Below are positions 5,696 through 57,342 of a stretch of DNA of 64,000 nt, piece by piece. Numbering within the stretch: position 1 is the stretch's first letter; each line of letters begins with the position of its first letter. This stretch comes from Crassostrea angulata. Taxonomy: Eukaryota. The translations under genes and the position numbers were made by a program. Below the pieces are notes generated by a model, which made no database searches, was not told the DNA's origin, and saw nothing but the letters and a program-made list of their open reading frames with translations. The DNA is taken from NCBI RefSeq assembly GCF_025612915.1, contig NC_069116.1:6090123-6154122 (forward strand). Direction: 5' to 3'.

Positions 5696-7362
5696 CTAAA
5701 CAGGTCAATGACACAGTTATTCTTATGCTTCCCAAATCACAGAAATAAAACATGTGGAAACAAGGAAATACAGGCCTACCTATCACAATGATATTAGATC
5801 CTATAGCATTTTATATTTAGTCTAAACATGTACGCTGAATACCCATCACCTATCATTAACATTACAAATCATATTATAACTGACAAGGATTTGGGGGATT
5901 TCAATAATCTTCATATCATGCATTGTCAGAAATATATGGCCATTCTCCAACCATCTTTGATTACATGTGCCCTATATTGGATCTTTTCTAATTTCTGCTA
6001 TGACCACTAGTTGTATTACTGTAGTTACTTGAATTATAGAAATATAGAGGACATCCATCAAATTAACAACAGGCAGACATAGACTTAGGAAGGAGTCAAG
6101 ATATGGAAGTTCCTTATAGAAAAAAATCAAACAACAAAAAACTGAGGGGAAATCCCTGGACCTCTACAATAAATGTCCTGATGATGTAATTTTTTGTTAT
6201 TCCTTTGAAGTTTTGATAAAAAAAATCCCCAGCAACAGGAGACACTTGAGAGTAGCTCTACATACTCCCACTTTACTCAGCAATGTGAGGATACGGCAGT
6301 CTCAGAAACCTAATCTCACTCTCAGGTCCAAATTCTCTTCCTGATTTTGCTAAGAGGAAACTACTTTTATCAGTCTCTATATGTAGTAAAATGGGTATCG
6401 GGACTAATAGATTAGGTACACCCCCTCCCATGTACAAACATGTTCAGAGGGATAAACCTGTCCGCAGTGAATTACTAATCAATAAAAAAATAAAGACTTT
6501 TGTGATATTTTTGACATTTAGTGGAATATGGTACAAAAGTAAAATTGGGGCAAGAATCTAAAATATAAATTAGAAAATCACAAAGATATTCCCTGTTACT
6601 AATTTAATTGTATGTATTGCATAAAAATACAGAGGTTTTATTACATCCAGAGAGATCCAGACTTATTTTATAGTGCAAGGGATCCCTAACATGTGAAAAT
6701 AGTGTTTATTTATAGTCCCATGTTGTGTTCATAAATTATGACATCAAAGTAAGAAATATTAATCACCCAATCATTAACTACAGACGTGTTGGTGAGTCAT
6801 TGGGGGATTCCCCTGCCGTCAAGGTAAGCATGTCTTCTCCATAAATGATGCAATCTATTGCATAACCATTGTGTCAAAGACAATCAAGGATCACTCACAC
6901 AGGTGGAGTCTATGTCACAAAACAAAAAAACGCAGGGGCCAGAAAAAGAATCATGTGTGTAAACACAAGAATCATTTCTTGGGTCTTTTTTGTGTAAATA
7001 TTAATGTGTTTGATTGTAAGGGGGTGGAGGAGTGGGTGGAGAGGTTAATTGTGCTATGTCTACTAGCTTCTTTGATAATAAAGATACATTTACAGTGTTT
7101 TACAGTTTATCTACTTATATATAAATTATCATTATTAACAGCCTCCCACATACTGATTATTGTCATATCAGTTAAATCAGTAAACACTCCTAAGAAAAGT
7201 AAGCACCATTTCTTCAATGGTAGAAAAGTTTTTATTACGTGTTTATGATATCAAATGCTATGTCAACAATTTTATTTGAAATGATTTGATGCACAAAATG
7301 TTTTTAGTTTCTAAAAATCTCTGAAACAACTCATTTTTTCATATCATTTCATAAAGTTTTAA

Positions 7363-13326: not shown

Positions 13327-13852
13327 GGGAGTTGATTTTAATCAACTCTCCTATGCACTTACTCGGACAAAGCGAAAGTGAAACAGTGTTTGGACCTAAG
13401 CACAAATCAATACCGCTGACAGCACTTAGTTCTGGAAAATATTCGATAAATTTGATGCTCTGTATTCTGAAGCATTGTTTTTCAAGAAAACTTATTTATC
13501 AATACCATGAAAATAATAAGATTTTAAATTGTACAAACAGTTTAGTTATTTTGTAAAGTCGTATGTATTCCTACGCTAGAGTTCAATGTAGTCTCGTTCA
13601 ACCAGACGCTAGGCTGTCTCTGTCGATATCCGACAAAATATATCTTGCTTGTCGGAGATAAACGGAGACAGCCGAGTGTTTGGTTGAACAAGACAAGAGT
13701 TCAATCTTGCCTGGATCCATACAATTTCTCAGAAATATTTCGATTACTGATACTACTTGCCATGCAAAATCACATATTTATCATTTTGAATAAATGATAA
13801 TCGATAAAATCAACTCCCGTCAGTACTTCAGTACTTTGATTTAGCATTGTAT
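13327..13852 (+). mobile_element. Foldback/MITE-like non-autonomous element, copy 1 (in RFC5 intron 2)
   Basis: Starts with the palindrome GGAGTTGATTTTAATCAACTCTCC. The 3' end is ...TAAAATCAACTCCCGTCAGTACTTCAGTACTTTGATT, giving terminal inverted repeats (TIR) GGAGTTGATTTTA/TAAAATCAACTCC. A long internal inverted repeat (cgttcaaccagacgctaggctgtctc ... gagacagccgagtgtttggttgaacaa) is also present. Three copies share the same ends. Confidence 0.75.
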
Positions 13853-15883
13853 TGAAACCTGATACGCTAACAGGGGCGTTTCGACTGAGAAATCTTGGAA
13901 ATTTTTAATACTTTTGAATGAACATTGTTTGAACCCTGAGGTATTACAAATACCATTAAAAAAATTGTTTTTGTTCCTGTGAAATTTTATGAGTGAAAAG
14001 GGATAATTGTTCAATGAAGATATCTTGGATATATTCCCTTTCATCGATTTCAATTGTATTTTTTTCACAGGTATGTGTATTTTTATTAAAAATCATCAAA
14101 AATTGATGGAAGCAATAACTTGGGACAGACTGTAGGATTTATTAGGTACAGCACAATCTCTTGATTATATAATTGGATGGGAGAAATAGTGAACTGCGTT
14201 TTCCGAATCTCTAGTCAGGTGCTCTACCAGCTGAGCTTTCTGGTGCCATTATTCGAAATGGTTTGACCGGCACAATTATATTATATCCCAAATGGGCTAT
14301 TACTGTATTTTCCCGACGACTCGTCGATGCGGACGACTCGTCGAATTGCCCATTTTTAGCCAAAATTTTAACAAAATCCTACGATGCATAGATCTCAGAC
14401 CATACGTCGATCTTATCACTTCAAAATGGCCTATAAAACTGCAGTAACATTATCAGTGTATGATGCCACGATGTCACCGATATTGCTACCAATTGCAATT
14501 ATTATTAATGATTAACATTTAAACAATTACGCTTTATACTTATGCATCAAATTTTCAAATACCGGCAACTTCTACAAAGTCGCTTGCATTTTAAACAATT
14601 CCCGATATCGCGTGTTATGCAAAACTAAACTTACTTTGTCAGAAATATTTTATTCCCAAGCATTAAAATAAGTATCCACTCTGACTATCGCCAGTGTATT
14701 CGCCATTACGTAACCAGCCACCTGTTGACTCGGCGCGTGGTCAATGTTTGTTTAACAATTTCCGGTGTCATAGGCATGCACCTGTCTCGTGTCGGACTTC
14801 AAAGGGGGATCTCAAGTGCAGAAAGCTTAGCAATTACTATGATTTGATGAAACTTGTTTACTTTGTATCAAGTAATGCAGTTACACGCTATTGTTTTACA
14901 TAGACACTGTTAGAAATAGATCGATCATTTGTACGACTTGATAATGACGATATACGACATACATACGTTTCCTAAGAAAATTGTCTAACAATAATCAAAG
15001 AATTGGACAATAATTAATCAATGAACTATAATCACTCTTATAACGGTACTCTTTTTATACACAGGGAGTGAAATTGCCGTAAAGATCTCACCCTTAGGGC
15101 ATGATTATTAACACAACCGGTGTCAGCCTATTGTATAAACAATAGTATTGATAATTGCCGATTACGTATTTTAAGATTGAATTTGACCATTAAATATTTC
15201 TGATTTATACTTTCCACTAACAACTCTTTACAAATAAAATAATTAAATTTAAAAAACATCCCCCAGACCTACTGCAATATTTTCTTCCATTCAAACTTGG
15301 TTTCAATTTTACTGCGCAATGTTATCTTCCTATAAGTGATACATAGAACCATGTGACGATGTCACGGATGTGTTTATAAAAACGGAACGGTAAAACTTTT
15401 AATTGATTAAAGACAATGTAACATTTTTTAATAACTGTTGTTATTATTATGTATTTAAGTGTTGACAGATGAGTGAAAATGATAATTATTAAAGATGAAC
15501 AGTGAATTCAACAACGTAATTTTTAATCACACAGCCAACTCAAGATGATTAAAACCAAGATTTTTAATGCTATTTTTAATAAAAATTTTCTGACATCGAG
15601 CCTACGACAAGTCGATCAAGACGATAAGTCGGGTGCTCTGCTTCAGAGAAAAAAAATACCGACTAATCGTCGGAAAAATACGGTAGATTCCATTTGGGCA
15701 ATTGGTCCCAACCTGATGAAAATCAAGTTTTGATCCATACATTTCTGAATGGCCCAGGCTGTATGTAATGCAAACCATTTGATGCATTAGTTATTGTGAA
15801 CAATGAGTACATAGAACATTAGTTTTGCAATTTAAAGCATTAAAAAAGTAGTACTTTTGTTTTCTATATCTCTCTTTTTTTAG

Positions 15884-16020: not shown

Positions 16021-16936
16021 GTGACTTGTTGCTTCATTTTACCTGGTCATACATAAAAGTTTTATATGCAAGCCTTTTTTTTGAATGTTTATCATGTTTT
16101 TAGTCCCAAAACCAACATTAACGAATAATCAGGCAACATAGTTGTAATTTTATGTCCCATACGAGAAATAGAGTCTGCACAAGCTTTTACACAATATGTA
16201 TTATCAGTATTACTTGTTATAATGTCACAGAAAATCAACCAGAGGAATGACAATATTAACCATGTTAACAGAGAAATACTTAAATAATGTATGTTTGTTA
16301 TAAGAAATAATGTTTTGATATTTTATCATTTTGTTCATAGACTTTGAATTTACATGTATATGCAAAGTGTGCTTCATAAGATGTATTTGACTAAATTCAT
16401 GAAGCAAACAATTTTCTGAATTTGGCATTTTTGTATGACAAAAAACGGGTTAAAACTCAAACAACAGAATACATAGTTATCTAGGGTTGATAATAAAATA
16501 AAACTACAAATGCAACTGTTTGTATATTGATAAAACATTGCAAGAAAACGAACAGATTTCATACGACTTTCTTGTTTCTCTATCAGCAATGTTAACCTCA
16601 TGACGTCACAGTTCATTTTGCACCAAATTTGGCTTCATTAAAAAACTGTTCAAGTGTGAAATCGGGTTTCCCGAAACATCTTGAAAAGTAATTGCGCAAT
16701 CGCAGTAAAAATTTTAGGATGCTGGTTTTTATTTCACATAGATTTCCATTATATCAAAATTGACTGACATTGCAGGTACCCTTTAAATTTTATCAGTGTG
16801 TATCAGCATTTATTACTGATAATTTTTCTGGGTAATGCCTGCAGTAAAAATTTTTATCCTATCTGGAAGGAATTATAACATCATGATAAAAGAAAACAAT
16901 GTCCTTATTAATATTGAACTCTACTTTTATTTACAG

Positions 16937-17016
16937 TTGAATGCATCAGATGATCGAGGAATAGGTATAGTGCGGGGACAGATTCTCAGCTTTGCAAGTA
17001 CAAGAACTATATTTAA
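16937..17016 (+). CDS. RFC5: RFC5-like exon 4
   Basis: ttacag acceptor. Encodes LNASDDRGIGIVRGQILSFASTRTIFK, against human LNASDDRGIDIIRGPILSFASTRTIFK. GTATGC donor, phase 2. Confidence 0.85.
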
Positions 17017-17275
17017 GTATGCATCTGAATTTTCATTTCATTTTATTTTTCATCAATAATTTGAAAAACTGACACCTCTAAAAAATTTAATTTGCTATAC
17101 ATGTTATTGAATAAAATTAAATGTTGTAAAGTAATACATGTATATTTAATATCCTCTTACTCTTTTTAATAATCATTTTACAAAATCCTAAATTCTAGAA
17201 ATATCTAGGGATCTCTAATAGCAGAAAATTTATTTTTCAGCTTCAATGTTCATTACTGTTTTGTTACTTACTTAG

Positions 17276-17349
17276 ATCTGGTTATAAGATTGTGATACTA
17301 GACGAGGCTGATGCTATGACAAGAGATGCACAAAATGCTTTACGTAGAG
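17276..17349 (+). CDS. RFC5: RFC5-like exon 5 (DEAD-box-like Walker B)
   Basis: Encodes (K)SGYKIVILDEADAMTRDAQNALRR. GTGAGC donor, phase 1. Confidence 0.85.
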
Positions 17350-17546
17350 GTGAGCGTCCTCTGTAACAAATAAATACAACATCTGATTCATACTGTTCAA
17401 CCGTTATGTATCTGACATAATTATTGTAAAGAATGAGATTCAAAATTTCATCACAGGAATCATAAAATTTGATGGAAAAGTGATAAATTGAATGATATTG
17501 CTTAAAAATGTAGTGGTCTATTGTATGTAGTTTTTGAATTTTTTAG

Positions 17547-17706
17547 TCATTGAGAAGTTTACAGAGAACACACGTTTTTGCATCATCTGCAATTACCTTT
17601 CAAAGATCATCCCCGCTCTCCAGTCTCGGTGTACTCGCTTCAGGTTCGGACCTCTGGGTACTGACCAAATGGTGCCACGCCTTCAGCATGTCATACAACA
17701 AGAACA
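17547..17706 (+). CDS. RFC5: RFC5-like exon 6 (sensor region, SRC motif)
   Basis: ttttag acceptor. Encodes VIEKFTENTRFCIICNYLSKIIPALQSRCTRFRFGPLGTDQMVPRLQHVIQQEQ. GTAAAT donor, phase 2. Confidence 0.85.
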
Positions 17707-17918
17707 GTAAATATTTACATTTTATATGATTTAAGGCTAATGATTTTTGACATGGCAGCTACTGAAGTACCTTCTGTGAATCCTCAGTGCTAAGAAAAAT
17801 CATTTTGTACATGCATTATATACTGACAAAAAGCATTAGTTATTTAGCGCTTCCTGAATGATTTCTGCCAAAAAAAACTTGAATTTCAGATAATTGAGCA
17901 TTTTGTTATTTTTTTCAG

Positions 17919-18000
17919 ATGTAATGTCACAGAGGATGGCATGAAAGCCTTAGTTACTCTAGCCAATGGTGACATGAGGAAAGCTCTAAATATTCTCCAG
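17919..18000 (+). CDS. RFC5: RFC5-like exon 7
   Basis: tttttcag acceptor. Encodes CNVTEDGMKALVTLANGDMRKALNILQ. GTAACA donor, phase 0. Confidence 0.85.
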
Positions 18001-19127
18001 GTAACATTCCTAGGAAAATAGAGTGAAAGATTAATTTACATTAAAGTATAAACAGCATACTGTTCACACTTGCATATGATGTGAAGCATATTTCGTATGT
18101 ACAGAAATTTAATACAGTAAAACTCATTTAGTACGAACATGGATATAGCGAAATCTCGGATATATCTAAGTTTTTTTAGTCCTCAGTAAAATTATTAACA
18201 AATCTTTGCAAAATTTTACAGTATAACAAATTTGGATATAAAGAATTTACAGATATAGCGAACTGATTTTGAGTTCCGTAGAGGTGAATAATGATGAAAT
18301 TTAACACTTTTATTACAAATTTCTTTACAGTTTAAAATGTTTGCACTACCATTTCACATAATAGTTCAAATGAATTTATTTTCACATAAATTTTTCAATT
18401 TACAATCCGATTATTAAAGGTATCAAAGAATGAATTTTAATTCTAAGCCTCAATTAGCAAAAAATGTAGTCTGGTAAAAGAAAACATGTATAAAGTGAAT
18501 TCGCCATAGTTAATATAAGGAATTCGTTATACGGATATAATGAATTACGGATATAACGAAGTTAATCTATTGGCCCCTAGGACTTCGCTTTAACCGAGTT
18601 TTACTGTACAGCAAAATGAAATCTTTATGCACTCTTCATTTTGTAATTTATATGTTTGATGTACTCCGACCCATGGGTAGGTAGTAGCTCTTTTTTAAAT
18701 TTTCTTGCACATCGATAAACTATTTTTTCTTGTACTGAGAATGCTAAACAAATTCAAAATTCATTGACACAGAAACATAGTTTAAATGTGTTTTTAATAT
18801 GACATGGGCAATCAATTTTTTTAAAAATCAAATTTAAAATGGAGAATTTCAACGGGTTGGTTGAAGTACATCAAACAAATCATTTTTTTTAAATTTATTA
18901 TAGAAAACATAATTTTTCAGAGAGAGCATGTTATTGATTTTGATTATAAATCTCTCTTAGTAAATGATAAAATGTAAGTGGGAAAGATTGGCACTGGCTT
19001 ACAAAACACAGATAAATTTATGAATATTGAGTATGTTCAATGACTGGCAAATATTAACATGGTTTTCTAACTAAAATCTGCACTGGATGTGCATAACTTT
19101 TAATATAAATCAAATCACCGTTTGCAG

Positions 19128-19257
19128 AGCACACATATGGCTCATGATGTGGTGAATGAAGACAATGTTTATACATGTGTGGGCCATCCACTTAGAAGAG
19201 ACATAGAAAACATCATCAACTGGGTCCTGAATGAGAATTTCACCTCTGCGTACAACA
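19128..19257 (+). CDS. RFC5: RFC5-like exon 8
   Basis: tttgcag acceptor. Encodes STHMAHDVVNEDNVYTCVGHPLRRDIENIINWVLNENFTSAYN. GTATCC donor, phase 1. Confidence 0.8.
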
Positions 19258-19400
19258 GTATCCTTTAATGCTTTTGTTTTTTATTTGTTTAGCCCAATCT
19301 AGAATTTCACATAAACTATCCAAGCCAGGGTTTTTGATGTTATATGAGAGCAACTTATAATATCTCTTTTGCATTTTATTGATTCTTAAAGGCTGCTAAG

Positions 19401-19478
19401 ATATTTTAGAAATGAAGACAGAAAAAGGTCTGGCTCTTCAAGATATCCTGACAGAAGTTCATACATATGTACATAGAC
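19401..19478 (+). CDS. RFC5: RFC5-like exon 9
   Basis: Encodes (N)ILEMKTEKGLALQDILTEVHTYVHR, against human NITELKTLKGLALHDILTEIHLFVHR. GTGAGT donor. The acceptor is a weak AG after ctaag, so the exact 5' boundary is uncertain by a few nucleotides. Confidence 0.7.
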
Positions 19479-19704
19479 GTGAGTTGAGAATGCTATTATT
19501 TTAGATTTGGCTTGATATATAACTTTACATTTAACTGGGTTATATATATATATTTTATCTGCTGACAAATCATGAAAATTAATAATAGAAAATTTTGATA
19601 TGATGTACATGTAGCTCTGTATTTGAAGTGTCCTAAACCATGATAAATGAAACTATATTTCGGTCATTAGTCAAGCTTAACTTTTGTTATTTTTTCAATT
19701 TCAG

Positions 19705-19759
19705 TTGACTTACCAATTAATGTAAAAATTCATCTTCTGGACAAAATGGCAGAAGTAGA
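19705..19759 (+). CDS. RFC5: RFC5-like exon 10
   Basis: tttcag acceptor. Encodes LDLPINVKIHLLDKMAEVE. GTAAGT donor, phase 2. Confidence 0.8.
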
Positions 19760-21229
19760 GTAAGTAACTTACAATGTCTTTTACAATATATCTGTATACT
19801 AAATAAATGTGTATGCTTACTTAACATCATTAAATTGTTTTTTTAATGTACAATATAAAAATACTCATTATTCATGTAAATTAAAGTAAGTATAAAGCTA
19901 GTTTCCTAAGAAAATCTATATTATAAGTTGTATTAAAATGTATTGTTTGCTGTATAATTTTACATGTGTTTAAGATCTATATATTAATTGCACCTTTTAA
20001 GTTTAAACCTCCTAATAGTTGTAGAGAAAAAATTGTCATACCCAGACTCTTATTATAAACTCTTAAGCAAGTATTTGAACAGTAATATATGTAGCATTTG
20101 TCAGTAAAGAAAGATAAGTTTTGAAAATTCAAGGTCTCCAATCCCCAGATATTTTAAGTCAATTTGTAATAAAGTTTTTTTTTTAGCAAAATCCCTTTAT
20201 ATCTGGATATAAAGTAAAATATATTTATGCATGGTCATATGTATGATGAGCATAAAGGCTACTTTCAAAATTGATCCTTTGGTTTCAGAATGCTTAGATC
20301 TTGTAGCAAATGTGAATAACTAATTACAAATGCATACAAAGTTGACAATTCTAATCAATATAATCCTCTTTCAATCTTTCCTAAATGTGAATTAACACAC
20401 TGTCTTACTAACGCACCAACATATATCGAGATACCCATATCCCCTCAAAAATAAAATGCATGAGGGGATAACAATATATACAAATCCCTCCTGGACAATC
20501 AAAAACACACATCACCCTAACACAAACCTCCCACTTATTTTTCACAAATTTTACAGTCTTCTGGTTACGTTTTAGAGAACATCAGCCTATCCATGTATTT
20601 TTCTATTCATCATTAAATGTTTTTACATGAAAAAAAATATACATAAGGGCCTAAAATGCCCCCCTAAATTAAACATCATATATGTATTTTACTGTACTAA
20701 TATATGTTTTTGTTATGAATATGTCGTCTATCCTTTCCAGCCATTTTTCAATTTTTTTCAATGGCTTATATTAACGCAGTTTTTCTTTCAGAAAACATTG
20801 AGCACAGGCTTAAACAAAGAAAATATTTTCATCAAACTTTAATATTACAAGACTAATGAAAGACTAAGATTTTGCTTGTTCAAAACTTTATCCTATATTT
20901 CCCATCTGAAAAAGATAACGAAAATGCACATATTGGACTGATTTTTTTGAATTCTAAATATAGCTTCACTTATGACATCTGATACTGCCAGTTTATAAAA
21001 TTTATTGAGATGTATATATGAAAAATTACATCATATAACAATTCTCCTACAAAACAATAAAACAATTCATATGCCTAAAAAGTATTGAAAAAGTTGAAGT
21101 ATGGGGGCCAAATTTGACTCTTTTCATATATAGTTCTCAAATCTATTTTTGATGTTAATGACACATTCATGATTTATAGAAAAATATATGAAGAGAAACA
21201 AGAGGACCATGAGCCACAACAGTTTGTAA

Positions 21230-23950
21230 CAATCCATTTCGTAGCATATGCTATTTTTATTTTAAATTTTTAACCTTTTCTGGGGCCCAAGTATTGGTCT
21301 GGGGTTTATGGTTGGCTTTAACAATTTAAATTATACACTATTTGAGGATCCTTGCATATTAATCTCACAAACTTTAGCATTGTAGTTCTTGAGAAGAAAG
21401 TTTTTAAACATTTTTATTTCTATGTTAAACTTTGAACCCCTCTTGAGGCCCCAGTAGTAGTTGGGTGGTCACAGCCTTATTAATTTAGAATCTACATTAT
21501 TTAAGGATGCTTTCAACTTCACAAATTGAAGCATTGTAGTTCTTCAGATGAAGATTTTTAAACATATACCTCTATATTTTTATGTTAAACTTTTAAGCCC
21601 ATCTGGGGCCCCAGTATTAGATGGAGGCTTTTACAATTTAGAATCTACGCTATTTTAGGATGCTTACAAGTAATTTGACAAATTGAAGCATTGTAGTTCT
21701 CAAGAATCTTATTGTCCAAGGTTGCATTCATAGCAATCTCACAAATTATAGCATTTTAATTCTCGAGAAGAAGATTATGAAAATTTTTAACTTTGAACCC
21801 ATTTTAGGGCCCCAATATTAGTTCGGGGGGTCATGCTTTTACCAATTTAGAATCTACAATAGCCATGGATGTTTAGATAGTAATCCACAAACTGATGCAC
21901 TGATGTTCTTGAGATGTTCCCTATACATGTATATTTCTTATTAACTTTGAACCCTTCCTGGGGCCGAAATATTAGTCTAAAGGTAACGTCTTTAAAAATT
22001 TAGAATCTTCACAATATGAGGAATCTTTCATAGTAATCTCACAAACTGTAGCATTGTAGTTCTAAAGAAGATTTTTAAAACACTTTTCCTCTATACTTCT
22101 ATGCTAAACTTTGAACCCCTTCTGGGGCCCCAGTGTTGGTCTGGGGGTCACAGCTTTTACTATTTAGTCTAGGGGTAACCTCTACCAAAATTTAGAATCA
22201 TCACAAGTTGAGGATGCTTGTATAGTAATCTCACAAACTTTAACATTATAGATCTCGCAAAGAAGATGTTTAAATATTTATTTCTGTGTTAAACTTTGAA
22301 CACCCTTGGTGCCCCAGTATTACCGGTAGTCCGGAGGTCACGAATTTACTAATTTAGAATCTACAATAGCCAAGGATGTAGTAATATCCCAACTGTTGCC
22401 TTGTAGTTCTTGAGAAGAAGATTTTTAAACATTTTCTTAAATACCGGTATGTTAAACTTTGAAACCCGTCTGGGGCCCAGTTATTGTCCGAGGTCACGAT
22501 TTTTTGGAGTTGATTTTAATCAACTCTCCTATGCAGTTACCCGGACAAACCGAAAGTGAAACAGTGTTTGGACCTCAGCACAAATCATCGCTGCTGACAA
22601 GACTTAGTTCTTGAAAATAATTGATAAATTCGATGTAATGTATGCTAAAGCATTGTTTTTCAAGGAAACTTATTTGAAAATAGTCAGATTTTAAAAGATA
22701 CGAACAATTTAGATATTTTTTGTAGTCGTATGTATTCCTACGCCAGAGTTCAATATAGTCTCGTTCAACTCGACGCTCGGTTGTCTCCGTAAATCTCCGA
22801 CAAACAGAGAGTCTCTCTTGCTTGTTGCAGTTTACGGTGTCAGCCGAGCGTTTGGTTGAACGAGACTAGAGTTCAATATTGCTTGGATCCATACAATTTT
22901 CGAAAATATTTTTATTACTGATACATAGTTTGATTGAATTAAATTTATCTTTAAATATTATTTAACATGATTCATATGGGGGTTTCTCGACATTCTTGTC
23001 GAAAAAGTCCAAAAATTCATATTATAAAAATGTGCGTAATTCAAATACAAATTAGAAACTGCATGTACTTGTCATGCAAAATAACATATCATTGACTTTA
23101 AAATAAAATCAACTCCCGTCAGTTCTTCAGTACTTTGATTACAATTAAGAATCTTCAGTTTATATACAAGCTTCTGTATAAATATTGGCATTTCTGGTGA
23201 AGTGTTTCCGCATCTTGAGGAGAAGTATTTTTAAACTTTTCCCCTATGTGATTCAATGTTAAAATTTGAACCCCACCTGGGGCCCCAGTTTTGGCCCAGG
23301 GGTCACAATTTTTACAATAATGTTTACTATATATAAGCTTTTGTGTAATCATTTGCATTTCTAGTGCAGTGGCTCTTGAGAAAAAGATTTTAAATTTTTT
23401 TCTTTCATATTTCTATGTTAAACTTTGACCCCCGCCTGGGGCCCTAGCTTTAACCCAGAGGTCACAATTTTACAATTTAGAATTTTTAATATTTTTTCAG
23501 GCTTTTTTGTAAATATTTGGGTGGAGGTCACGGTTTTTACAATTTAGAATCGTCACTATATACAAGCTTTTGTGTAAATTTTGGCATTTTTGGTAAAGTT
23601 GTTCTTGAGAAGAAGATTTTCCCACAGATTTCTATGTTAAAATTTGAACCCCTCCTTAGGCCTCAGTTATGGCTCGAGGGTCACGATTATTACAATTAAG
23701 AATCTTCACTATATAGTAGTATTCAAGCTTGTATGTAAATATGGGCATTTATGGTGCCGTGGTTCTTGAAAAGAAGATTTTAAGACTTTTTTCTAGGTAT
23801 TTCTATGTCAATATTTGACCCCGCCTGGGGCCCCCGATTTAACCTAGGGTCACGAATCTTCACTGCATATACACATGTATATATTCAAGCTTTTGTGTAA
23901 ATATTGGCATTTTTTGTGCAGTTGTTCTTGAGAAGAAGCAATTGCCTCCT
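21230..23950. repeat. Satellite-like tandem array of about 150-200 bp units (about 14 units) inside the last RFC5 intron, interrupted by a nested element
   Basis: Recurring core aaactttgaaccccNcctggggccccagtattgg...atttagaatctacaat...attgtagttcttgagaagaagatttttaaa repeats about every 155-200 bp. The array is split by the insertion at 22506-23150. Confidence 0.8.
22506..23150 (+). mobile_element. Foldback/MITE-like element, copy 2, nested in the satellite array
   Basis: Same termini as copy 1. The flanking sequence on both sides continues the tandem-repeat unit (ggtcacgatttttt | element | acaattaagaatc), which shows a clean insertion without an obvious target-site duplication (TSD). Confidence 0.75.
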
Positions 23951-24339
23951 TTAAAAAGGGATTAGCACTTTGTTTTAACATTTAGACTCCCCTTCCCCTA
24001 AGGATACTTTGTACCAAGTTTGGTTAAATTTGGCCCAGTGATTTTAGAAAAGTTAAAAATGTGAAAAGTTTTTGGACGGACAGACGGGCGACGGACAAAA
24101 GGTGATCATAAAAACTCACTTGAATCTTCGGTAAAAGTGAGCTAAAGAGGGCGTTATTTTCTACACTGGGGCTCAGATTCCTTGTCAAGCCTTGGCAAAG
24201 TCTTCTCCAAGATCATGAATCCTTTTCCCTTGATGGAATTTTACTCTCAGATGAATTGTAAATGGAAGTTTATGATCACTCCTGGAGAATAGAACAAAGT
24301 AAAATACTGTAATCTGATTATTTTTTGTTTTACTTTCAG

Positions 24340-24436
24340 ACATAGGCTGGCCTCTGGCACCAATGAAAAGATCCAGCTTTCATCTCTGATAGCTGCATTC
24401 CAAGTAGCTCGAGATCTCATTGTTCAAGAAACATAA
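24340..24436 (+). CDS. RFC5: RFC5-like terminal exon with stop codon
   Basis: tactttcag acceptor. Encodes HRLASGTNEKIQLSSLIAAFQVARDLIVQET*, against human YRLSVGTNEKIQLSSLIAAFQVTRDLIVAEA*. TAA at 24434-24436. Confidence 0.85.
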
Positions 24437-24478
24437 TGATTTCTTATGAAACAAATCAAACTGTCTACCGCTATTATG

Positions 24479-24484
24479 AATAAA
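24479..24484 (+). terminator. Candidate polyadenylation signal (AATAAA) for the RFC5-like gene
   Basis: AATAAA lies 43 nt downstream of the stop codon. Confidence 0.4.
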
Positions 24485-25189
24485 TTTTCTTGAATAAGTG
24501 TTCCATCTTCTTTTTGGAGTTTTTTATGCTTTGTGCAAATCAAAAGGAACTGAAAAGTAGGCTTGTGGAATTGGACAAATCTGCCTTTAAGATTGCATCT
24601 ATACAAACATCATTTGTTTCTAAAGATTTTTTCATGAATAACTTGATATCTTCAATACTTACTTTTATTGTTTTCACAAATACGAAGAAGGAAATACTCG
24701 AGTTAGTGCAGGACACTGTCATATTTTTCTTTTCTTGCTACTTTTCTCAACAATTTCTAAATAAGCTGCAGACTTTTTTAGCAGTTCAAAGTATTTAGAT
24801 GTACAGGCCCCACTTTCGTTGAAATATCTAACACCGCTATTGATAATTGGTGGCTGTACTATAAATAGATTTTATACACTTATTCCAAGCGAGAAGAAAA
24901 GACCTTCAAATATACACGGCACTGCATTATAAACAAATAGAAAATGCACCAAAAAAAAAGAGAAAAGCGCAGAATCTAATGCAATAGTAATGCTACAAGT
25001 TGGTCATGATTCCAAGGTGTGCACTCAGATTAACAAATGCGAAGGGTTGATTTGCACGTGTTCTGGTGTCGGTGATGGAAAAACAAGAATGTCGTCTCTA
25101 TTTAAATGAGCCACGCTTAACTTTATAAGCGTCTTTTCACAATTTAAAAATCATAAGAAAACTACGCAGGTTTAAGATTGTAGGCATTA

Positions 25190-25470
25190 GAACCATTTTA
25201 CTAAAACCTTTGATTTTCAGTAGGGCGTAATTATCTATTCCTCGCGTCAAAACAAGTTAAAAATGACGCGGTTTCAAGCGAAAAATGCACCGATTGCGTA
25301 GACTTAGCGTAAAAGCCAGACAAATCTTGTTAATTTCAAAGAGCCGTGGCTGAGTGGCTTGCAATGAAATAGACAGGCCTACGTCACGTTGTTGTTTGAC
25401 AAAAACTACCCAAAATCCAAGCTCCTCTTAAAATGGTTCTAGTTGGACTCGAACTCATAACTTATTGCAA
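25190..25470. repeat. Dispersed repeat family D, copy 1
   Basis: cagtagggcgta...gcgtcaaaacaagttaaaaatgac..gtttcaagc..aaagccagacaaatcttgttaatttcaaagagcc...gagtggc..gcaatgaaatagacaggcctacgtcac is similar to 42690-42940. Confidence 0.7.
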
Positions 25471-28400
25471 TCACAAAATAGAGGTGTCTCGATTTAAGGA
25501 AATGATATTGTAATGTTGCGAATCAAATGTGTCCAAAATAAATAAACAGAATAAGCAAGTGATAAGACCATTTGTGAATCACTTGGTGCAGAGAAGAGAC
25601 AATTGGCCACTTAAGGCGTTTATGACTGGCATCATTATTGACACTCCCGAAAAATTCACCTCCGGTGTCAATTTCAACCGCTTATTTTATCATACTGAAT
25701 GTCTTAATTTTAAAGAAAACTTTACTGCTGATGCTAACTCTAAGGCGAACCGTACGCGCATGTAACAATTCGTCGTGTTATCCGTTGCCTTGTGTGTTGA
25801 TAACGCTGAGGGTAATAGAATGGATTATAAACTGTGTCTTAACTAATCAGACTTCACTATTTAATTTCAAAAATAATTATAAAAAAATACCCTAGTAAAG
25901 TTAAAATCTGATAGAAAAAAATCCAGAATATTACATTTTGCACATCCAACCTTCACGAAAACTGAACTGGGCACTGTTATCGGGTTTCTTTGTACGTATG
26001 TCGTGAAACTAGCCATCCAACTACGATGAATAGTACTTCCTAAGTGTCGAGGGTGTAAAAAAAATAAAAGTGACCTTATGTCTTGTCATCAAGCATAAAC
26101 TTTTCTTCCTTTTAGGAAGCGGTGCACACGAACATCCGAAACATAATCCAAAACAGCATTCTTTACAGATCCTTATCTAATGTGGCAAAATCTGGAGGGT
26201 CGATCTTGCATGTTTTAAATCGACCAAGCATATGTTTGCAAAAGGTTTATTGTCTGACGTCCATCTCATTGTCGAATAGGTTGTTGGATGATTCACAAAT
26301 TGCTTCAGCTATTTTTTATCGTTTCCCCGAGAAATGACGAATAACGTTGTGTGATTCATTGCATAAAGTATAACTTCTAAACTTGGGGACAAATATTATT
26401 TAAGATTTTTGGCTTGACATTCTTAACTTATAATATACATAAACTTATAATATACATGTATATCTGAATTTGTTCATAACAGTTTATAATTAGTCCAATT
26501 CTCAATTTACGATCTCGCAACTTTAATGTGAAGATGGTTGACCTCCGGTAAGACACTTATTGTTTAACAATTGACCACTGCAGTGAGAGCGCTTCCAAGT
26601 GTTACTTAACAATTGATGGTCTGCAGCCATAAATAACCTGGGGCTGATCTAAATATGTTTGCGTCGTGTGCACTAAAGCGACGCAAGATTTCCGGTTGCA
26701 CGTGGTGATTGAATGAACACAGAGTGACCGAATAAACAAACGGGTGGGAAGAAGAAACACAATAACGAGAAAAAATTTACACTTTAGGGGTAATCAGAAA
26801 TTGAGTTTTCGCAACATTTGGATATCATCTCGCCAATTTTAAAAAAAAATCGCCATTGCCAAGATTGGCGAAGCCCAGCTCGAGCACTGGTGTAGACCCT
26901 CTGGAACCGATTGATGGCGTTCATTTTGTCTGTGTAAGCTAACCCTACAAAGTCGATGACAAATCCTGACATCTTGGTTTTCACCCCAAACAGATATCGT
27001 GTTTCATGATTACTGTGTATTTGTCACAGATCTCACAAATTGAAAAAAAAAACCCACTAAAATGACAGCTATTATAACCAATCGAGTTTGCGTCACATTT
27101 TTAAAGAAATGTCAAAGCAGCTTGATCTGATTTTTTGGCAATGCAAGTCTGAAAATATTTCTCATCCAAAGAAATTTCTGGTAAAAAAAACCCACAAAAC
27201 AAATCATACTCCGCAATCTGTCTTTTGAGAAATATACAGCATGTACTTAAAAAAAAAGTAGAATCAACTTTACTGCGTCGAGTGTCGTACAGTTACATGC
27301 ATTGGTTAGAAAACGTCTTATCGCAAACATCATATATAAAATCAGTTGCATCGAAGCGTTAAAAAATATTTCATTATATTCCAGGGAAAACTACTTTTTT
27401 AAACGGACCCATGGAACTGAATTTGTATGAAACTCTTCTACATAGGTTTTGTTCAACTTAAAACATGTTTCACACCTCAAACAATGGATTTTTACTGATA
27501 TCAAATGATTTGTTACAGACCAGGTCCAAGCTCCATGGCTTGTTGACGTGTCGTTACATGACTTTTGACCTTCGAAGTTGGTCGTCAGCACTTCGGGTTG
27601 TATTGAATTTCCGTACAAACCTTTGAATGGTTTGGTGGTCTCTTTAAAAATCTAGCAATCTGTATTAAATATTATGAATTAAGATTAGCACTTTTATTGT
27701 TTTGGACAGCATTTTTATAGATAAATATAAGAAACAAACGTATCGTGAACCACACCCTGCTTGGACCATGCCAACTGCTTTTCCACATTCCCGGCAAGAC
27801 ATGCATGCGCCGCATTTTACTCAATTTGTTTCTTGTTTTTTGTTATAAGCAACTAGAGGCAGAGAACTGTTTTTAAATCACACCCAAAAATATTTAGATC
27901 CACGCTTTTCAACAAATACGTTCAGGGTCGACTCACTCAATTACAATATTTTGACATGGACAGTTGAGCATTTTAAAAAACAGACAATAGTCGCAACGTC
28001 TTTTAAACTGATGTTATGGTTTCTTTAATTATAAAATATTAAAAGTGGGGCGTCAGAATTTTTGGCTCGTATATAGAAAGCAAACAGATACCAGATGAGC
28101 CTGGAAATGATGCTTCTAAATGAATAAGATGTGCAACGTATTCCTGTGTATAGATTAATGGGGAAAACTATGACCATAATCTGAATAAAAAAACCCAGAA
28201 ATTGTTCTTAAAACGACACTGAATAGTTTTATATAAACATATAAAGAGAATGTCAATGATATTCACTTCAAAGACCAAATAACCCGGGTCTTTGAATCTT
28301 TACCAAAGACAAATGTACAATATTTAAAAAAACAAACTTGGATCGCCTCTGAATTCCTTATAATTATGAAGTGCATTAGCTGGTTCCCATCCCTTTCTCA

Positions 28401-30564: not shown

Positions 30565-31216
30565 GGAGTTGATTTTAATCAACTCTCCTATGCAGTTACT
30601 CTGGCAAACCGAAAGTGAAACAGTGTTTGGACCTAAGCACAAATCATCACCGCTGACAAGACTTAGTTCTCGGAAATTATCGACAAATTTGCTGTAATGA
30701 ATTCTGAAGCATTGTTTTTCAAGGAAACTTGTTTATTGATACCTTGAAAATAGTCAGATTTTAAATGGTAGGAAACAATTTAGACATTTTTTGTAGTGGT
30801 ACATGTATGTATTCTTACGCTAGAGTTTACTATAGTATCGTTCAACCAGACAATCAATGGTTTCCGTAAATCTTCGTCAGGCAGAGAATTTCAGAGAGTT
30901 TGTCGGAGATTAACGGAGACAGCAGAGCGTTTGGTTGAACGAAGCTAGAGTTCAATATTGCTTGGATCCATACAATTTTTCAGAAATATTTCGATTACTG
31001 ATACGTACGTTGATGGAATTAATAGTATCTTTAAATATTACACGACATGATTCATATGGGGTTTTCTACAAATTCCGAGAATTCATATTATAAAAAACGT
31101 GCGTAAATCAAATACATAACGGAAACCACTTGCCAAGCAAAATAACATTATCGTTGATTCTAAAATAAATAATAATCGATAAAATCAACTCCTGTCAGTA
31201 CTTCAGTACTTTGATT
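30565..31216 (+). mobile_element. Foldback/MITE-like element, copy 3
   Basis: Same terminal palindrome and the same 3' ...CTCCTGTCAGTACTTCAGTACTTTGATT. The internal region is closest to copy 2. Confidence 0.75.
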
Positions 31217-43892: not shown

Positions 43893-44012
43893 ATGAAACC
43901 TAATTAAATGCATATATGAGACTCCTCGACAAGTTTGTGTATGGGTTATATGCCACTCAGGTGACCGTTAAGGCCAATTGACCTCTTGTTTGGAGAAATT
44001 GACACAAATAAA
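43893..44012. repeat. Local direct repeat, family E, copy 1
   Basis: ...gactcctcgacaa(g/t)tttgtgtatggg(t/c)tat...caggtgacc(g/c)ttaaggcc(a/t)attg(a/g)cctcttgttt... repeated about 415 bp downstream. Confidence 0.65.
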
Positions 44013-44305: not shown

Positions 44306-44432
44306 TAATAAAACTCAATTAAACACATTTATGCGACTCCTCGACAATTTTGTGTATGGGCTATGGTTTTCAGGTGACCCTTAAGGCCTATTGGCCTCTT
44401 GTTTGAGCATGAAAGCTGACACAAATCATTAT
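44306..44432. repeat. Local direct repeat, family E, copy 2
   Basis: See copy 1. Confidence 0.65.
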
Positions 44433-45890: not shown

Positions 45891-46727
45891 TTTATATAAG
45901 CACAACTGTATCATATTTTAAGCGGTTTATAAAAAAAATAAGTTTTTTTATTTTTTGTCTGGTGTCCATCCATCTGTCTGTCTGTCTGTGTAAACTTTTT
46001 ACATTTTCAACTTCTTCTCCAAAACCACTGGGCCAATTAATAAAGGCCCATGCTCTCTTTTAAAGGGAATTACTGAATACAGGGAATATTCGCCCCTGGT
46101 TTATTGTCGCCTCTTTCGCCCTCGTTGTCAGAGGGCGAATTGAAGACTGGGCAAATTCAATGTTGCAAAGAAAATCTCTGTTAACACAACTGCATCTGGG
46201 TAAATCAAGACGGGGTGAAAAAGCTTGCAAGTGTAAATGAATACAGTAAGGTGTAAAAATTCACTGAATGTTATTTAAGTTTATTGTTTACAGAAAATTT
46301 CAGCTTGACGCCTTTGTGGTTGTACAGGCCTTTGAATTTTTGAATCAAGAATTTTTGGATGAGGTTGGCCCTCCCCACTTGGAAAACAATGCTACATACC
46401 TGAGAGCTAATTTTTTGAACAAGAAACAATTTGATATTTTCTGTGTAAAGATAGTACCATTTTTGTCATTTGAAAATTGTTGTAGTGTGGGCGACAAGAC
46501 AAATTTACGGTAATCATTAAACAACCAAGTATATTAATCTGTGTATTCACATTATCTGTGTAGGGTTGGCATAACAGATGTTATTAATGGATGTGTGCAT
46601 GATCGGGGCCTTAGATCACACCTGCTTATCAAAATCAAAGTGTTTTTAATGTCAGTTAAAAATGAAAAGTATGAATATTATGTATGATTTAATACTATTC
46701 ATTATATATTAGGATTTGTTTCATCTT

Positions 46728-50128: not shown

Positions 50129-53100
50129 ATTGAAGATAAAACTACAAAACCAGAAAGTCAAAATGATACTGTAGATCTAGATTGTGAGGAATCAGAAAAC
50201 CTAGTGATTGATATCCAAGAGAATAGTTATGAATCAAATGTAGAAAATAGTGTAGGAAAAAAGAATGTCGATCTAAGTTCTGCAGAGGCAAAGGAAGAAA
50301 AATATAATCAATTAGGGAAATTGATAGAGGAATCTAAGGAACAAAAATTGCCTGAAGCTGTAGATATACAGGAGAATACTGATTCTATACATGGAGAAAA
50401 TCTTGTTCGGAATTCTAATGATGTCAATACTGATGCTGTTAAGCAGAAAGAACCTGAGCGAAGGGATAACCAAAGTGTTTTTGAGGATGGTGTTGAAGAA
50501 ATACAAACTCTATTACAAGAATTTGTGAATTCATCAAGTAAACCTGTAGTCATATCAGACAATAGCAAGGCATCATTGGCTGGAACTGAATCACAGATAG
50601 ATTCATCACAAAAAGGATCAACAACGGAAGCAGCCTGGTCTACAGTTGGATTAGATAGATGTTCTTATTGTCTGTTCACAACTGATCAGAAGGAATTGCT
50701 TGAAACCCATATGTCATCTTGCTCAAGAAAAAATACCAAAAAAGAAGAAATTTTCCTGGTGTATTCAAGTAACAACAAATATGGATGCAAAAATTGTCTT
50801 TTCATGTCAGCTCAAAAAAAGAAATTCGAAGAGCATGTTGCCTTTCATATTCTTTCAGACCCTTACATTTGTCTCACTTGTATGGTCACATATGATTCAA
50901 AGAAGGAAATAGAAAAACATGTTAAACAAGTACATTCCAACAAAGTGGTGAAGTGTGGCTTAAGAGGATCAAAGAAAATTAACAAAATTATTGAAGAGCT
51001 GCATAGTAAAAAGGAAGTAACCTTTATTGGAAGAAAGGTTGAAAAGAAAGCATTGTTGCCCATGATTGATCAGAAGGAAAAACCTGCTCAAAACTTTTCC
51101 ATTACAACAGTAGGATCTGAAGGGTCATTACCAGTTACTGTTGAAGCATATAATTCCAAAATTGCAAAGAACAGACAGTTTAAATTTGGACAGGATAATG
51201 GATCTCAGATAACCACTAAGCCCAACACAACTACCATTTTATCAGTTCCAAGTATTCCTAAATTTACACAGAGTGTAAGTTCAATTCAACCAAAAACATT
51301 TTCAGCACGTGCAAATGCTCCTATATTTTCACTTGCAGGATCAGTTTCCAGTTCAAGCATGCCAGTAATAGCGTCTTCAGTCCACCAAGCAGTTCTTGCT
51401 CAGCCACTAACATTTCCTGGACAAGCAGCTGTCCAAGGTCCAGTCCTATGTACTGTTAGTAGTCAGTCACAGCCAATGATTCTTGTTCCAGTTCAGCAAA
51501 TTCAAACAAGGGGCGTCCTTGCTGGACCATTTCAGATAAAAGCAGGACAAGCAGGGTCCCAAATTTTGCCAGTCTCAAAGTCGCAGTTTGTTAATATCAG
51601 CCCAGCACCCCCAAAACCAATTTCTGCAACTGCAGGCACCCAAGCTCAAAGAGTAATTGTTGTTAATACTGGAAGTTCATTAACAACAAGTACTGCCCAA
51701 ATCAATAGCAATAACCAATTAAGCCAAACCAGGAATACCATTCCAACAACCGTTAACATGATTGGCATGCAACCTGTCAGTTTAAAATTGAAGCAGCAAG
51801 TGGATTCTTCAGCTGGGGATGCTAATGGAAAATCTGCTATTATAAAACTTACAGTTAACCATGGTGAGAGTGCAACAAAACCTGAAAATCAGCTGATCTT
51901 CAAAAAAACTGGATCTGTATATTTTTGTCATACATGCAGTTACAAATCAGATTTTGAGGAAAACTTTGTAAAGCACATATGGGAGCATATGCACATAAAA
52001 AATATGTGTGCAGTTCAAGAACATCAAATATACAAGCAAAACGTGCAATGCAATATTGTTACAAAAATAATGGATAATTTAAAATGTGCAGCTGCTGAGG
52101 CCGAGAAAAAACAGAAAACACCATTAGAATCCAAAAATACCATACCAGAGCAGATTGTCCTCAGTTCTGATGAAGAGGAAGATGTTTCAAAGCAACAGCC
52201 AGCTTCAGCAAGTAATGAAGAATTGGATTTGAATGCCAGTGCAAATGATCTTCAAATTAGAATAACAAGTACATTCAGTTTGAGAGAATCTGATAATTTT
52301 TCAGACTTTACAGCTACAGAAACAAAGGATACAAATGAGAGTGCAAAATACATTGATGATATGAATCCTGTAATTGAAGGAAAAGAAAATGAAATGATTC
52401 CAGAGAAAGAAATGTTTAGGGAGCTATCGCCTGATAGAGAGAGCAATGTAGGAGAAGTAGAAGAAATTAATGATTTGGTAGCAGAAAATAAAAAAGGCAC
52501 TGAATCTGAAATTGCAGGCAATATTGCATCTAGTGAGGATAGCAACAGTAGATTTGAAAAATATCCACAATCTGTTTCTGAAAATACTGAATTGGACCTT
52601 AATTTCTCTGAGGGATCCACTTCTTCAAATTTGAGAGAAAACAGTGATTCATCAAATAAAATAGATGAACAGAGTGATTCATCTAATGGAAAAGATAAAG
52701 AATCACCAAAGACTGAAGAAAACAAAGGAATTTCTTTGAAATTTTACCAGTGTGGATTTGAGAGCTGTGGATTTGCAGTGTCCACTTCAACTGAATTTAG
52801 GGAGCATATTTCTCATATACATTCAGGAGCAAAAGAATTCAAATGTGCACATTGTGGTCATAAAAGCTTCACGGAAGAATGCCATTTTCGACACATATCT
52901 TGCCATGCAAAAAACCAATCAGGATTGTTGTTTAAATGTGCAGACGGTTGCAAATTTGCGTCAAATATCTTGAAACATTTTAATGAACACTTGGAAACGG
53001 TACATCCAGCGTTGAATTCATATAAGTGTTCCTCATGTCAAGAGGTGTTTGAAAAAATAAATGGACTTATTAACCACTGTGAAACTAACAAATTGCAATT

Positions 53101-56100: not shown

Positions 56101-57252
56101 AGGTTGTTCTGAATGTGAATATATGACCATTAAAAAGGATGAAATAGCAGATCATTTAAAACAATGTCACAAATCAGCAACATCAACTGATTTGCCTTTA
56201 AGTGAAAAAATAATAACAGTTAATCCAAATGATGAACCAAAGTCACCGGTGAAGGCTGAGAAAAAGTCAAAACTATTTTCGTTGAAAGTTAAGCCACTAA
56301 TCAAATCCCCGATATCAAAACCCCTATCAAATGAAATGAAAATGTGGAGCGAGGAAAATGAAGAACAAAGTATAGACTGCCCTGAGTGCAATGAAACTTT
56401 CTTTGAGTTAAGAACATTTAGAGACCATTTTGTAAACAAACACCATGGCAAGAAGATGTTATGTGGGGAGTGCGAAGAATATGCTGCACATCTTCCTTCT
56501 CTGATATTTAGGCATGCAAGACTCTTTCACAACCAAACAAAATTGGAAGATATCAAGATCAAAGCTGTTTCACAGAAAACAATTGAAGAAAAAGGACTTG
56601 ATCAGCGTTTAGTTATTTTGTATAGATGTCCAAAATGTGGGAAAATCTCAAGAAGATGTTCGCTTAAAAAACACATTTACACCCATTACAATTACAAGCC
56701 GTATCAGTGCAACCACTGTGTTTTCAAATGCAGGATACCAAAGAATATCAAAAGCCACATTTCAAAAATTCACCCAGGTAAACCTATGACTGATTTTACG
56801 TTTCGCAAGAACCTAAAACTGGAAAAAGAAATATCAGACATTTTGGAGTCGAGCAGATATCAAACACTGTCAAGGAAATCACAGCTGAATGCATCTTTGG
56901 GAAAGAATCAAACATCTACATCTGAGAGAATCGTACCAAGCAGGAAAATGAAAAAAGAAGGACATGAATCGGATGAAGATGAGGAAGAAGAAAAGGATGA
57001 TGAAGAGGAAGAGCCAGAAGAAGAAGAAGAATCTGAGGAGGAAGATGGAGAACCTCGGGGTGATTTGAAGAATATGTTTAGTCCATGTCACAATTACAAG
57101 GTGGAATTCGACGACCGTCGACAGAAAACTATCTACAAATGCAGCATCTGTCCTTACCAAAGCACTGTGAACAAAACTATGGTTACTCACTTTTATCATC
57201 ATGTACCACATGTTTTCAAGTGTCCTTATTGTGATTTCCAAGGCTATCCTAG
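50129..57252 (+). CDS. Zinc-finger gene giant exon (7124 nt), encoding about 2375 aa with most of the C2H2 fingers
   Basis: tgctttag acceptor. Uninterrupted ORF to a GTAAGT donor at 57253. Contains a Q/S/P/V-rich low-complexity block, acidic tracts, KRKRE NLS-like motifs and more than 25 C-x2-C...H-x3-5-H fingers, many followed by H-P-G-K. Confidence 0.85.
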
Positions 57253-57342
57253 GTAAGTTTACAATATATATTGTATATTTAGAGGAAATCAATTTCATAT
57301 TTCCCGAAAACATGTAGATTTTCAAATATTTTTACTTGACAG

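Follow-up and report, generated by a model that had tools for sequence, protein, structure and literature searches.

The closest described systems to the locus analysed here are the non-autonomous Helentrons (HINEs) of the oyster Crassostrea gigas. Our subject is a tandem array of about 160 bp units in the last intron of the gene RFC5, in a window of 64,000 nucleotides from Crassostrea angulata (assembly GCF_025612915.1, contig NC_069116.1, forward-strand positions 6,090,123 to 6,154,122); coordinates refer to this window unless another sequence is named. The left flank of the published Cg_HINE elements consists of a 5' subterminal inverted repeat (subTIR), an adjacent complementary inverted repeat (IR) and a microsatellite, and the right flank of a 3' subTIR followed by a palindrome (PMC7492417). 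According to the same paper, GTCY/GTCC microsatellites occur in the left flanks, the central satellite-like repeats have a fixed orientation relative to the flanks, and insertion takes place at T-rich targets without target site duplication (TSD), with copies in gene introns. For Cg_HINE_10_13 two related arrays in direct succession are the normal state (PMC7492417). The satellitome paper of C. gigas (Tunjic-Cvitanic et al. 2021, PMC8268682) lists five "Helitron boxes" and, in its Data S1, a CgiSat09 consensus of 166 bp, which was used here as printed. According to PMC8268682, CgiSat09 maps to Helitron-N2C_CGi and corresponds to two clusters, CL10 and CL13, of Vojvoda Zeljko et al. (2020, PMC7492417).

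Two further systems are related in sequence or in architecture. The Cg170/HindIII family (CgiSat01a/b) and the BIV160-type repeats, carried by Cg_HINE_1/2 and by the C. virginica pearl elements CvA and CvE, have monomers of about 165 bp. They share with our array the blocks GGGTCA..ATTTT.ACAA.TT.GAATCT.CAC and TTCTTGAGAAGAAGATTTT and are likewise carried in non-autonomous Helentrons. Cg170 differs in forming also long centromeric arrays, whereas the array in RFC5 belongs to the CgiSat09 branch and is a single short interspersed one. DINE-1 and the other Drosophila HINEs, as far as the work of Thomas et al. (2014) is reported in PMC7492417, have the same architecture of subTIRs, 5' hairpin, microsatellite, central repeats and 3' stem-loop, and likewise insert between T and T without TSD; they differ in the phylum of the host and show no sequence relationship.

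Comparison of the locus with these systems indicates, with a probability that we put at roughly 0.93, that the array would be the central tandem-repeat cargo of a single HINE of the Cg_HINE_10_13 / Helitron-N2C_CGi type with CgiSat09 as its monomer. We prefer this reading because the arms that bracket the array, on one strand and in the right order, are those of Helitron-N2_CGi/N2C_CGi, and the literature places the array's monomer in this family. From 5' to 3' the carrier consists of Box 1, a (GTCY)n microsatellite, Box 3, array B with five CgiSat09-type units, array A with seven units, and the right arm; Box 1, Box 3, Box 2, CgiSat09 monomers and two consecutive subtypes were thus found together. 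The published boxes were placed by local alignment to the whole window, with shuffled windows as control. The components are as follows.

19760-24339, plus strand: last intron of RFC5, 4,580 bp; located by tblastn of RFC5 proteins, with the GTAAGT donor and the cag acceptor read directly
21198-24144, minus strand: whole carrier, 2,947 bp, putative non-autonomous Helentron of the Helitron-N2C_CGi / Cg_HINE_10_13 type; boxes in the right order, oyster relatives aligned
24102-24144, minus strand: Box 1 (5' end); 36/43 identical to the published Box 1, begins with TAGCTCAC, holds the 5' subTIR and the complementary IR
24074-24096, minus strand: left-arm microsatellite (GTCY)n, GTCCGTCGCCCGTCTGTCCGTCC in the minus-strand reading; between Box 1 and Box 3, as in the left flank of HINEs
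23939-24071, minus strand: Box 3; local alignment score 130 against a best score of 28 in shuffled windows; monomer-like
22458-23938, plus strand: array B; five CgiSat09-type monomers, split by a nested element, adjoining the left arm of the carrier
21247-22457, plus strand: array A; seven monomers of a related second subtype and a partial duplication (21719-21787), adjoining the right arm
21198-21246, minus strand: right arm (Box 2 region); 3' subTIR largely deleted, palindrome decayed, terminus ...CCTCTTGT

The tandem units were counted by cutting the region at the core motif and aligning the pieces, supplemented by a profile scan. The core motif TTTGAACCCCNCCTGGGGCCCCAG occurs six times at no more than three mismatches between 21431 and 23666, always on the plus strand, and not at all in shuffled sequence. 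A repeat search found a direct-repeat family of 12 copies with start-to-start distances of 154-219 bp and a single spacing of 807 bp, which is larger because it covers one unit and the nested element. The unit alignment together with the profile scan gave 12 complete units between 21268 and 23985. The profile scan additionally detected partial internal duplications at 21719-21787 and at about 23474-23540, and it found no units of this kind elsewhere in the 64 kb window. The units fall into two subtypes, A (n = 7) and B (n = 5). Identities are 63-80% among A units, 62-78% among B units and 48-68% between A and B, and the unit phase is unbroken across the boundary between the two.

An earlier note on this DNA had described an array of about 14 tandem units in the 4.6 kb last intron of RFC5, and had suggested an old array, or one delivered by a mobile element, with mention of the non-autonomous Helitron-family carriers known from bivalves. 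The array and its intron were correctly recognised (21247-23985, with about 160 bp per complete unit), and 14 is a fair count for 12 complete and two partial units. The proposed origin is supported by the CgiSat09 monomers and by the flanking Boxes 1, 3 and 2. The interval given, 21230-23950, locates the array; the carrier extends beyond it on both sides, from 21198 to 24144, and lies on the minus strand. The claimed divergence of 10-25% between units was too low, as the identities of 62-80% within and 48-68% between subtypes demonstrate. Tandem Repeats Finder, which the note had suggested as a check, reported no array in 20000-25500 even at a minimum score of 30, because the units are too diverged.

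The B units match CgiSat09 with 82-91% identity and scores of 136-199, compared with a shuffled maximum of 31. The match is nearly full length in four of the five and covers about 97 nt in the unit at 23424. For the A units, identity is about 68-76% with CgiSat09 and about 70% with CgiSat01a/b. The CgiSat09 consensus reads on the plus strand and the boxes on the minus strand, and copies from Ostrea edulis share this relative orientation.

At the left arm, the 5' subTIR and its IR (AGCTCAC...AAGTGAG(T)T), which in HINEs follows within 1-12 nt, lie inside the Box 1 match. The corresponding hairpin has a folding energy of -4.5 kcal/mol (z = -3.15) and folds better than every shuffle. Concerning Box 3, we observed that over about 105 nt the reverse complement of the published sequence is colinear with the CgiSat01a monomer (score 29 against a shuffled maximum of 21) and that Box 3 and CgiSat09 have an exact 20-mer in common. 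Box 3 looks like a decayed first monomer, which would speak for repeats that arose from the sequence of the element itself.

The right arm could be located only via the published Box 2 and by alignment to relatives. Its terminus TGTGGCTCATGGTCCTCTTGT is identical to the canonical Box 2 end TGTGGCCCATGGGCCTCTTGT at 18 of 21 positions. The palindrome reads GGCTCATGGTCC versus the canonical GGCCCATGGGCC and shows no significant fold (z = +0.65). When the right arm was aligned to small complete copies of Ostrea edulis and to a C. virginica fragment, it showed an 8-nt deletion and substitutions where the relatives have the subTIR CTCAGGTGAGCG. We read the largely lost 3' subTIR as probable decay of an old copy and not as evidence against a common origin. 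The minus-strand flanks, ...CCCTCTT before and TTCTCTTC after the carrier, are compatible with insertion between T and T without TSD. Removal of the nested element leaves a carrier of about 2,312 bp, which falls in the range of its Repbase relatives (2,310-2,633 bp).

The carrier thus resembles Cg_HINE_10_13 / Helitron-N2C_CGi (PMC7492417, PMC8268682) in the genus of its host, the left arm of Box 1, GTCY microsatellite and Box 3, the CgiSat09 monomer (82-91%), a partial match to the Box 2 terminus (18/21), the fixed orientation of the repeats, the intronic position and the size of about 2.3 kb. It is unlike the published elements in the substitutions of Box 1 (36/43), the 8-nt deletion at the 3' subTIR and the broken palindrome, as well as in its 12 monomers, compared with a family average of about 3-4, and in the interruption by another element.

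Several points weigh against this assignment. A search for the 3' subTIR of the carrier by complementarity to the 5' end gave no match of at least 10 nt at no more than one mismatch. Box 2 is matched only by its last 21 nt (positions 19-39, at 21218-21198 on the minus strand), with a modest score of 32 versus 24 in shuffles. The exact ends and the missing TSD are inferred from the boxes and not from an empty site: the fetched sequences contain no empty site for the carrier, and the orthologous intron of C. virginica is too diverged and too short. At the sequence level, the family would be assigned on the printed boxes and CgiSat09. Subtype A would belong to the published family by analogy. Finally, the switch from subtype A to B (22400-22510) is no more than about 50 bp away from the nested insertion, which may be a coincidence (roughly 1 in 12) or the trace of a more complex history.

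The element that splits array B has two further copies in the window, which allowed its ends to be defined by a three-way alignment.

22506-23140 (+/-2 nt), plus strand: nested element with HINE-type ends, 635 bp; delimited by the three-copy alignment, interrupts one B monomer
30565-31216, plus strand: second copy of the nested family, full length; 78% identity over the full length, 3' end z = -2.45
13328-13841, plus strand: third copy with an internal deletion, in an upstream intron of RFC5; 82% identity, absent from a second sequence of the same species

The element begins with GGAGTTGATTTTAATCAACTCTCC... and ends with ...AAAATCAACTCCCGTCAGTACTTCAGTACTTTGATT. When it is excised, CACGATTTTT is rejoined to ACAATT, which is the sequence of CgiSat09 at that point. 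The earlier note had correctly recognised an insertion inside one unit, but had set its end at 23150 instead of 23140. Its label "foldback/MITE-like" (MITE, miniature inverted-repeat transposable element) was not borne out, in view of the asymmetric HINE-type ends and an empty site in a T-run. At the 5' end the subTIR is followed by its own complement and forms the hairpin GGAGTTGATT-TT-AATCAACTCTCC (z = -4.74). At the 3' end the subTIR AAAATCAACTCC, the exact reverse complement of the 5' 12-mer GGAGTTGATTTT, is followed by the palindrome CAGTACTTCAGTACT and then by TTGATT. About 20 nt of palindrome and tail beyond the 3' repeat are kept in all three copies. Of the three 3' ends, those of the other copies fold (z = -2.45 and -2.12), whereas that of the copy at 22506-23140, which has a substitution, does not. 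A 5' subTIR with adjacent IR, a 3' subTIR and a 3' palindrome, as in HINEs, are therefore all present. Tandem repeats inside the element and a microsatellite after the IR, which HINEs also possess, were not found, and the element appears to be HINE-like in its ends only. It contains an internal palindrome (22756-22868) with 38-nt arms that are 84% complementary and a spacer of 37 nt; this palindrome is conserved in all three copies.

The second sequence of the species (GCA_963853765.1, chromosome OY970747.1, RFC5 locus; L002 in the following) provides an empty site for the copy at 13328-13841. At about position 2753 of L002 we read ACATTTTTT followed directly by AGCATTG, versus ACATTTTT, the element (GGGAG...TTTGATT) and TAGCATTG at the filled site of the window. 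The empty site is a clean T-run, in which any duplication would have to be concealed among the Ts themselves. T^T junctions fit all three copies, and their flanks share no duplication except T. That one sequence of the species has this copy and another lacks it speaks for recent activity of the nested family. None of the 52 satellite consensuses of PMC8268682 contains the motifs of the element, and a 30-mer and a 21-mer from its 5' end had no match in metagenome contigs. It is possible, though doubtful, that we are dealing with an undescribed HINE family of M. gigas without repeats or microsatellite which transposed recently or is still transposing and which favours T-runs of CgiSat09 monomers.

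That the nested element is a cut-and-paste MITE with terminal inverted repeats (TIR-MITE) or a foldback element, with a 2-bp TT target duplication concealed in the T-run, we regard as unlikely. Like such elements it is short and non-coding, has an internal palindrome and interspersed copies, and carries close to each end one copy of a perfect 12-nt inverted repeat (GGAGTTGATTTT / AAAATCAACTCC); a TT duplication could indeed be concealed at the empty site, which is a T-run. However, the two ends are not symmetric: the 5' repeat stands at the very terminus with its own complement next to it, whereas the 3' repeat is subterminal and followed by about 20 conserved nucleotides, which is the layout given for HINEs in PMC7492417. 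Repeats at both extreme ends combined with a duplication of fixed length, as expected for TIR-MITEs and foldback elements, were not observed, the flanks of the three copies have no common duplication except T, and the empty site shows none beyond the T-run.

Unlikely as well is an origin of the array from two carriers, one consisting of array A and the right arm and the other of array B and the left arm, which would have been joined by insertion or recombination near 22458. The low identity between A and B units (48-68%) and the subtype switch close to the nested insertion speak for such a junction, and the authors of PMC7492417 propose recombination as one origin of double arrays. On the other hand, the locus has a single left arm and a single right arm, no additional match to Box 1, 2 or 3 was found between 21218 and 23939, the unit phase continues over the A/B boundary, and related double arrays are normal in Cg_HINE_10_13. 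The insertion at 22506 was also considered as the left arm of a second carrier that would have brought array B. This candidate was rejected, as the unit is of the B type on both sides of the insertion and rejoins to CgiSat09, and as two independent copies of the element exist elsewhere in the window.

That the array is a true satellite, which multiplied within the intron through replication slippage or unequal crossing-over and is located beside transposon debris by chance, is very improbable, for although the units are not homogenised and the partial duplications at 21719-21787 and about 23474-23540 indicate some local rearrangement, the array is correctly bracketed by Box 1, microsatellite, Box 3 and Box 2 of the monomer's own Helitron family, no units lie elsewhere in the window, the size of about 2.3 kb without the nested element fits the Repbase relatives, and in place of the long, homogenised and typically heterochromatic or centromeric arrays of classical satellites we found 12 units with 62-80% identity within subtypes in a gene intron.

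For the single-carrier reading the following sequence of events can be proposed. By analogy with known Helentrons, a rolling-circle Rep/helicase provided in trans by an autonomous element would have copied the carrier into the intron at a T-rich site, and the repeats would have been delivered ready-made and not amplified in place. Later a second small element with HINE-type ends, oriented opposite to the carrier, would have entered one B monomer at its T-run. The present carrier copy is probably old and immobile, because most of the 3' subTIR is deleted and the 3' palindrome no longer folds.

RFC5 consists of ten coding exons on the plus strand, from 12567 onward, as determined by tblastn of RFC5 proteins against the window, and the encoded protein is 99% identical to the NCBI RFC5 of Crassostrea gigas/C. 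angulata. The penultimate coding exon ends at 19759 and is followed by the GTAAGT donor; the last exon (24340-24436) includes the TAA stop. The carrier lies antisense to the gene and, together with its nested passenger, makes up 64% of the last intron. The 5' end of the carrier is 195 nt upstream of the 3' splice site; an influence on RFC5 splicing is not expected. An Rfam search of 19500-24600 found no RNA family. Positions 16739-25532 align to L002 in a single block with 98.3% identity that covers the whole last intron, and L002 holds both the array and the nested 635 bp element.

The intron differs strongly between oysters. In C. virginica (L010) the last RFC5 intron comprises 151 bp (6949-7099), compared with 4,580 bp here, and contains no such element; the insertion in the window is therefore younger than the divergence from C. 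virginica. The whole gene extends over 11.9 kb here and 5.7 kb in C. virginica. The last RFC5 intron of Ostrea edulis (L012) has a length of about 940 bp and contains Box 3 at 14684-14781 on the plus strand, followed by CgiSat01b-like units at 14811-15357. This HINE fragment belongs to the superfamily of our carrier, but because of the opposite orientation and the different monomer branch it is an independent insertion. Two complete miniature HINEs, each consisting of Box 1, with or without Box 3, about one monomer and then Box 2, were observed in other RFC5 introns of O. edulis (L012 11743-12192 and 4456-4698), and a remnant of Box 3 and Box 2 in an intron of C. virginica (L010 2285-2480). 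More tentatively, RFC5 introns may be recurrent landing sites for the superfamily across oysters, with independent insertions in M. gigas and Ostrea edulis.

Some other elements of the window were noted in the course of the analysis. At 45950-46038 on the plus strand a (GTCY)n stretch precedes the initial 47 nt of Box 3 (44/47 identical), after which there is a break; this is the truncated left arm of another HINE of the Helitron-N2 type. Two weak right-arm ends similar to Box 2, about 79% identical and 414 bp apart (43956-43989 and 44370-44402, plus strand), may be the ends of other HINE variants. The comparison with L002 also showed two presence/absence differences, one in each direction, namely an element at 14302-15684 of the window and one at 4736-6235 of L002, whose empty site is at about 16740 of the window. 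Both elements are about 1.4-1.5 kb long, have inverted-repeat ends (TACYGTATTTTYCCG...CGGAAAAATACGGTA) and are flanked by a TA duplication; they look like a TIR transposon family with TA targets that is polymorphic in RFC5 introns.

Elsewhere in the window, an uninterrupted open reading frame (ORF) of 2,350 aa (50204-57256, plus strand) represents part of a larger protein (about 3,084 aa) conserved among oysters. The ORF shows 100% identity to an oyster transcript protein, 97% to a Magallana gigas protein that covers 24% of it, and 58-59% to proteins of Ostrea and Saccostrea; more distant relatives occur in scallops. One UniProt entry names the protein RE1-silencing transcription factor. The ORF has no Pfam match, and a Pfam search with the large ORFs of the window gave nothing except weak zinc-finger matches in one of them.

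Taken together, the array locus adds another decayed copy to a known family and as such is ordinary in the oyster genome, and the essentials have already been published for Crassostrea gigas (PMC7492417, PMC8268682). Beyond annotation it matters little: it is a textbook case of the short satellite-like arrays that non-autonomous Helentrons scatter in oyster euchromatin, as published in 2020-2021. Only mildly new are the small polymorphic element with HINE-type ends and the fact that the same intron was colonised repeatedly, in two genera of oysters. The small element and the family with TA targets illustrate the very high structural polymorphism of oyster introns.

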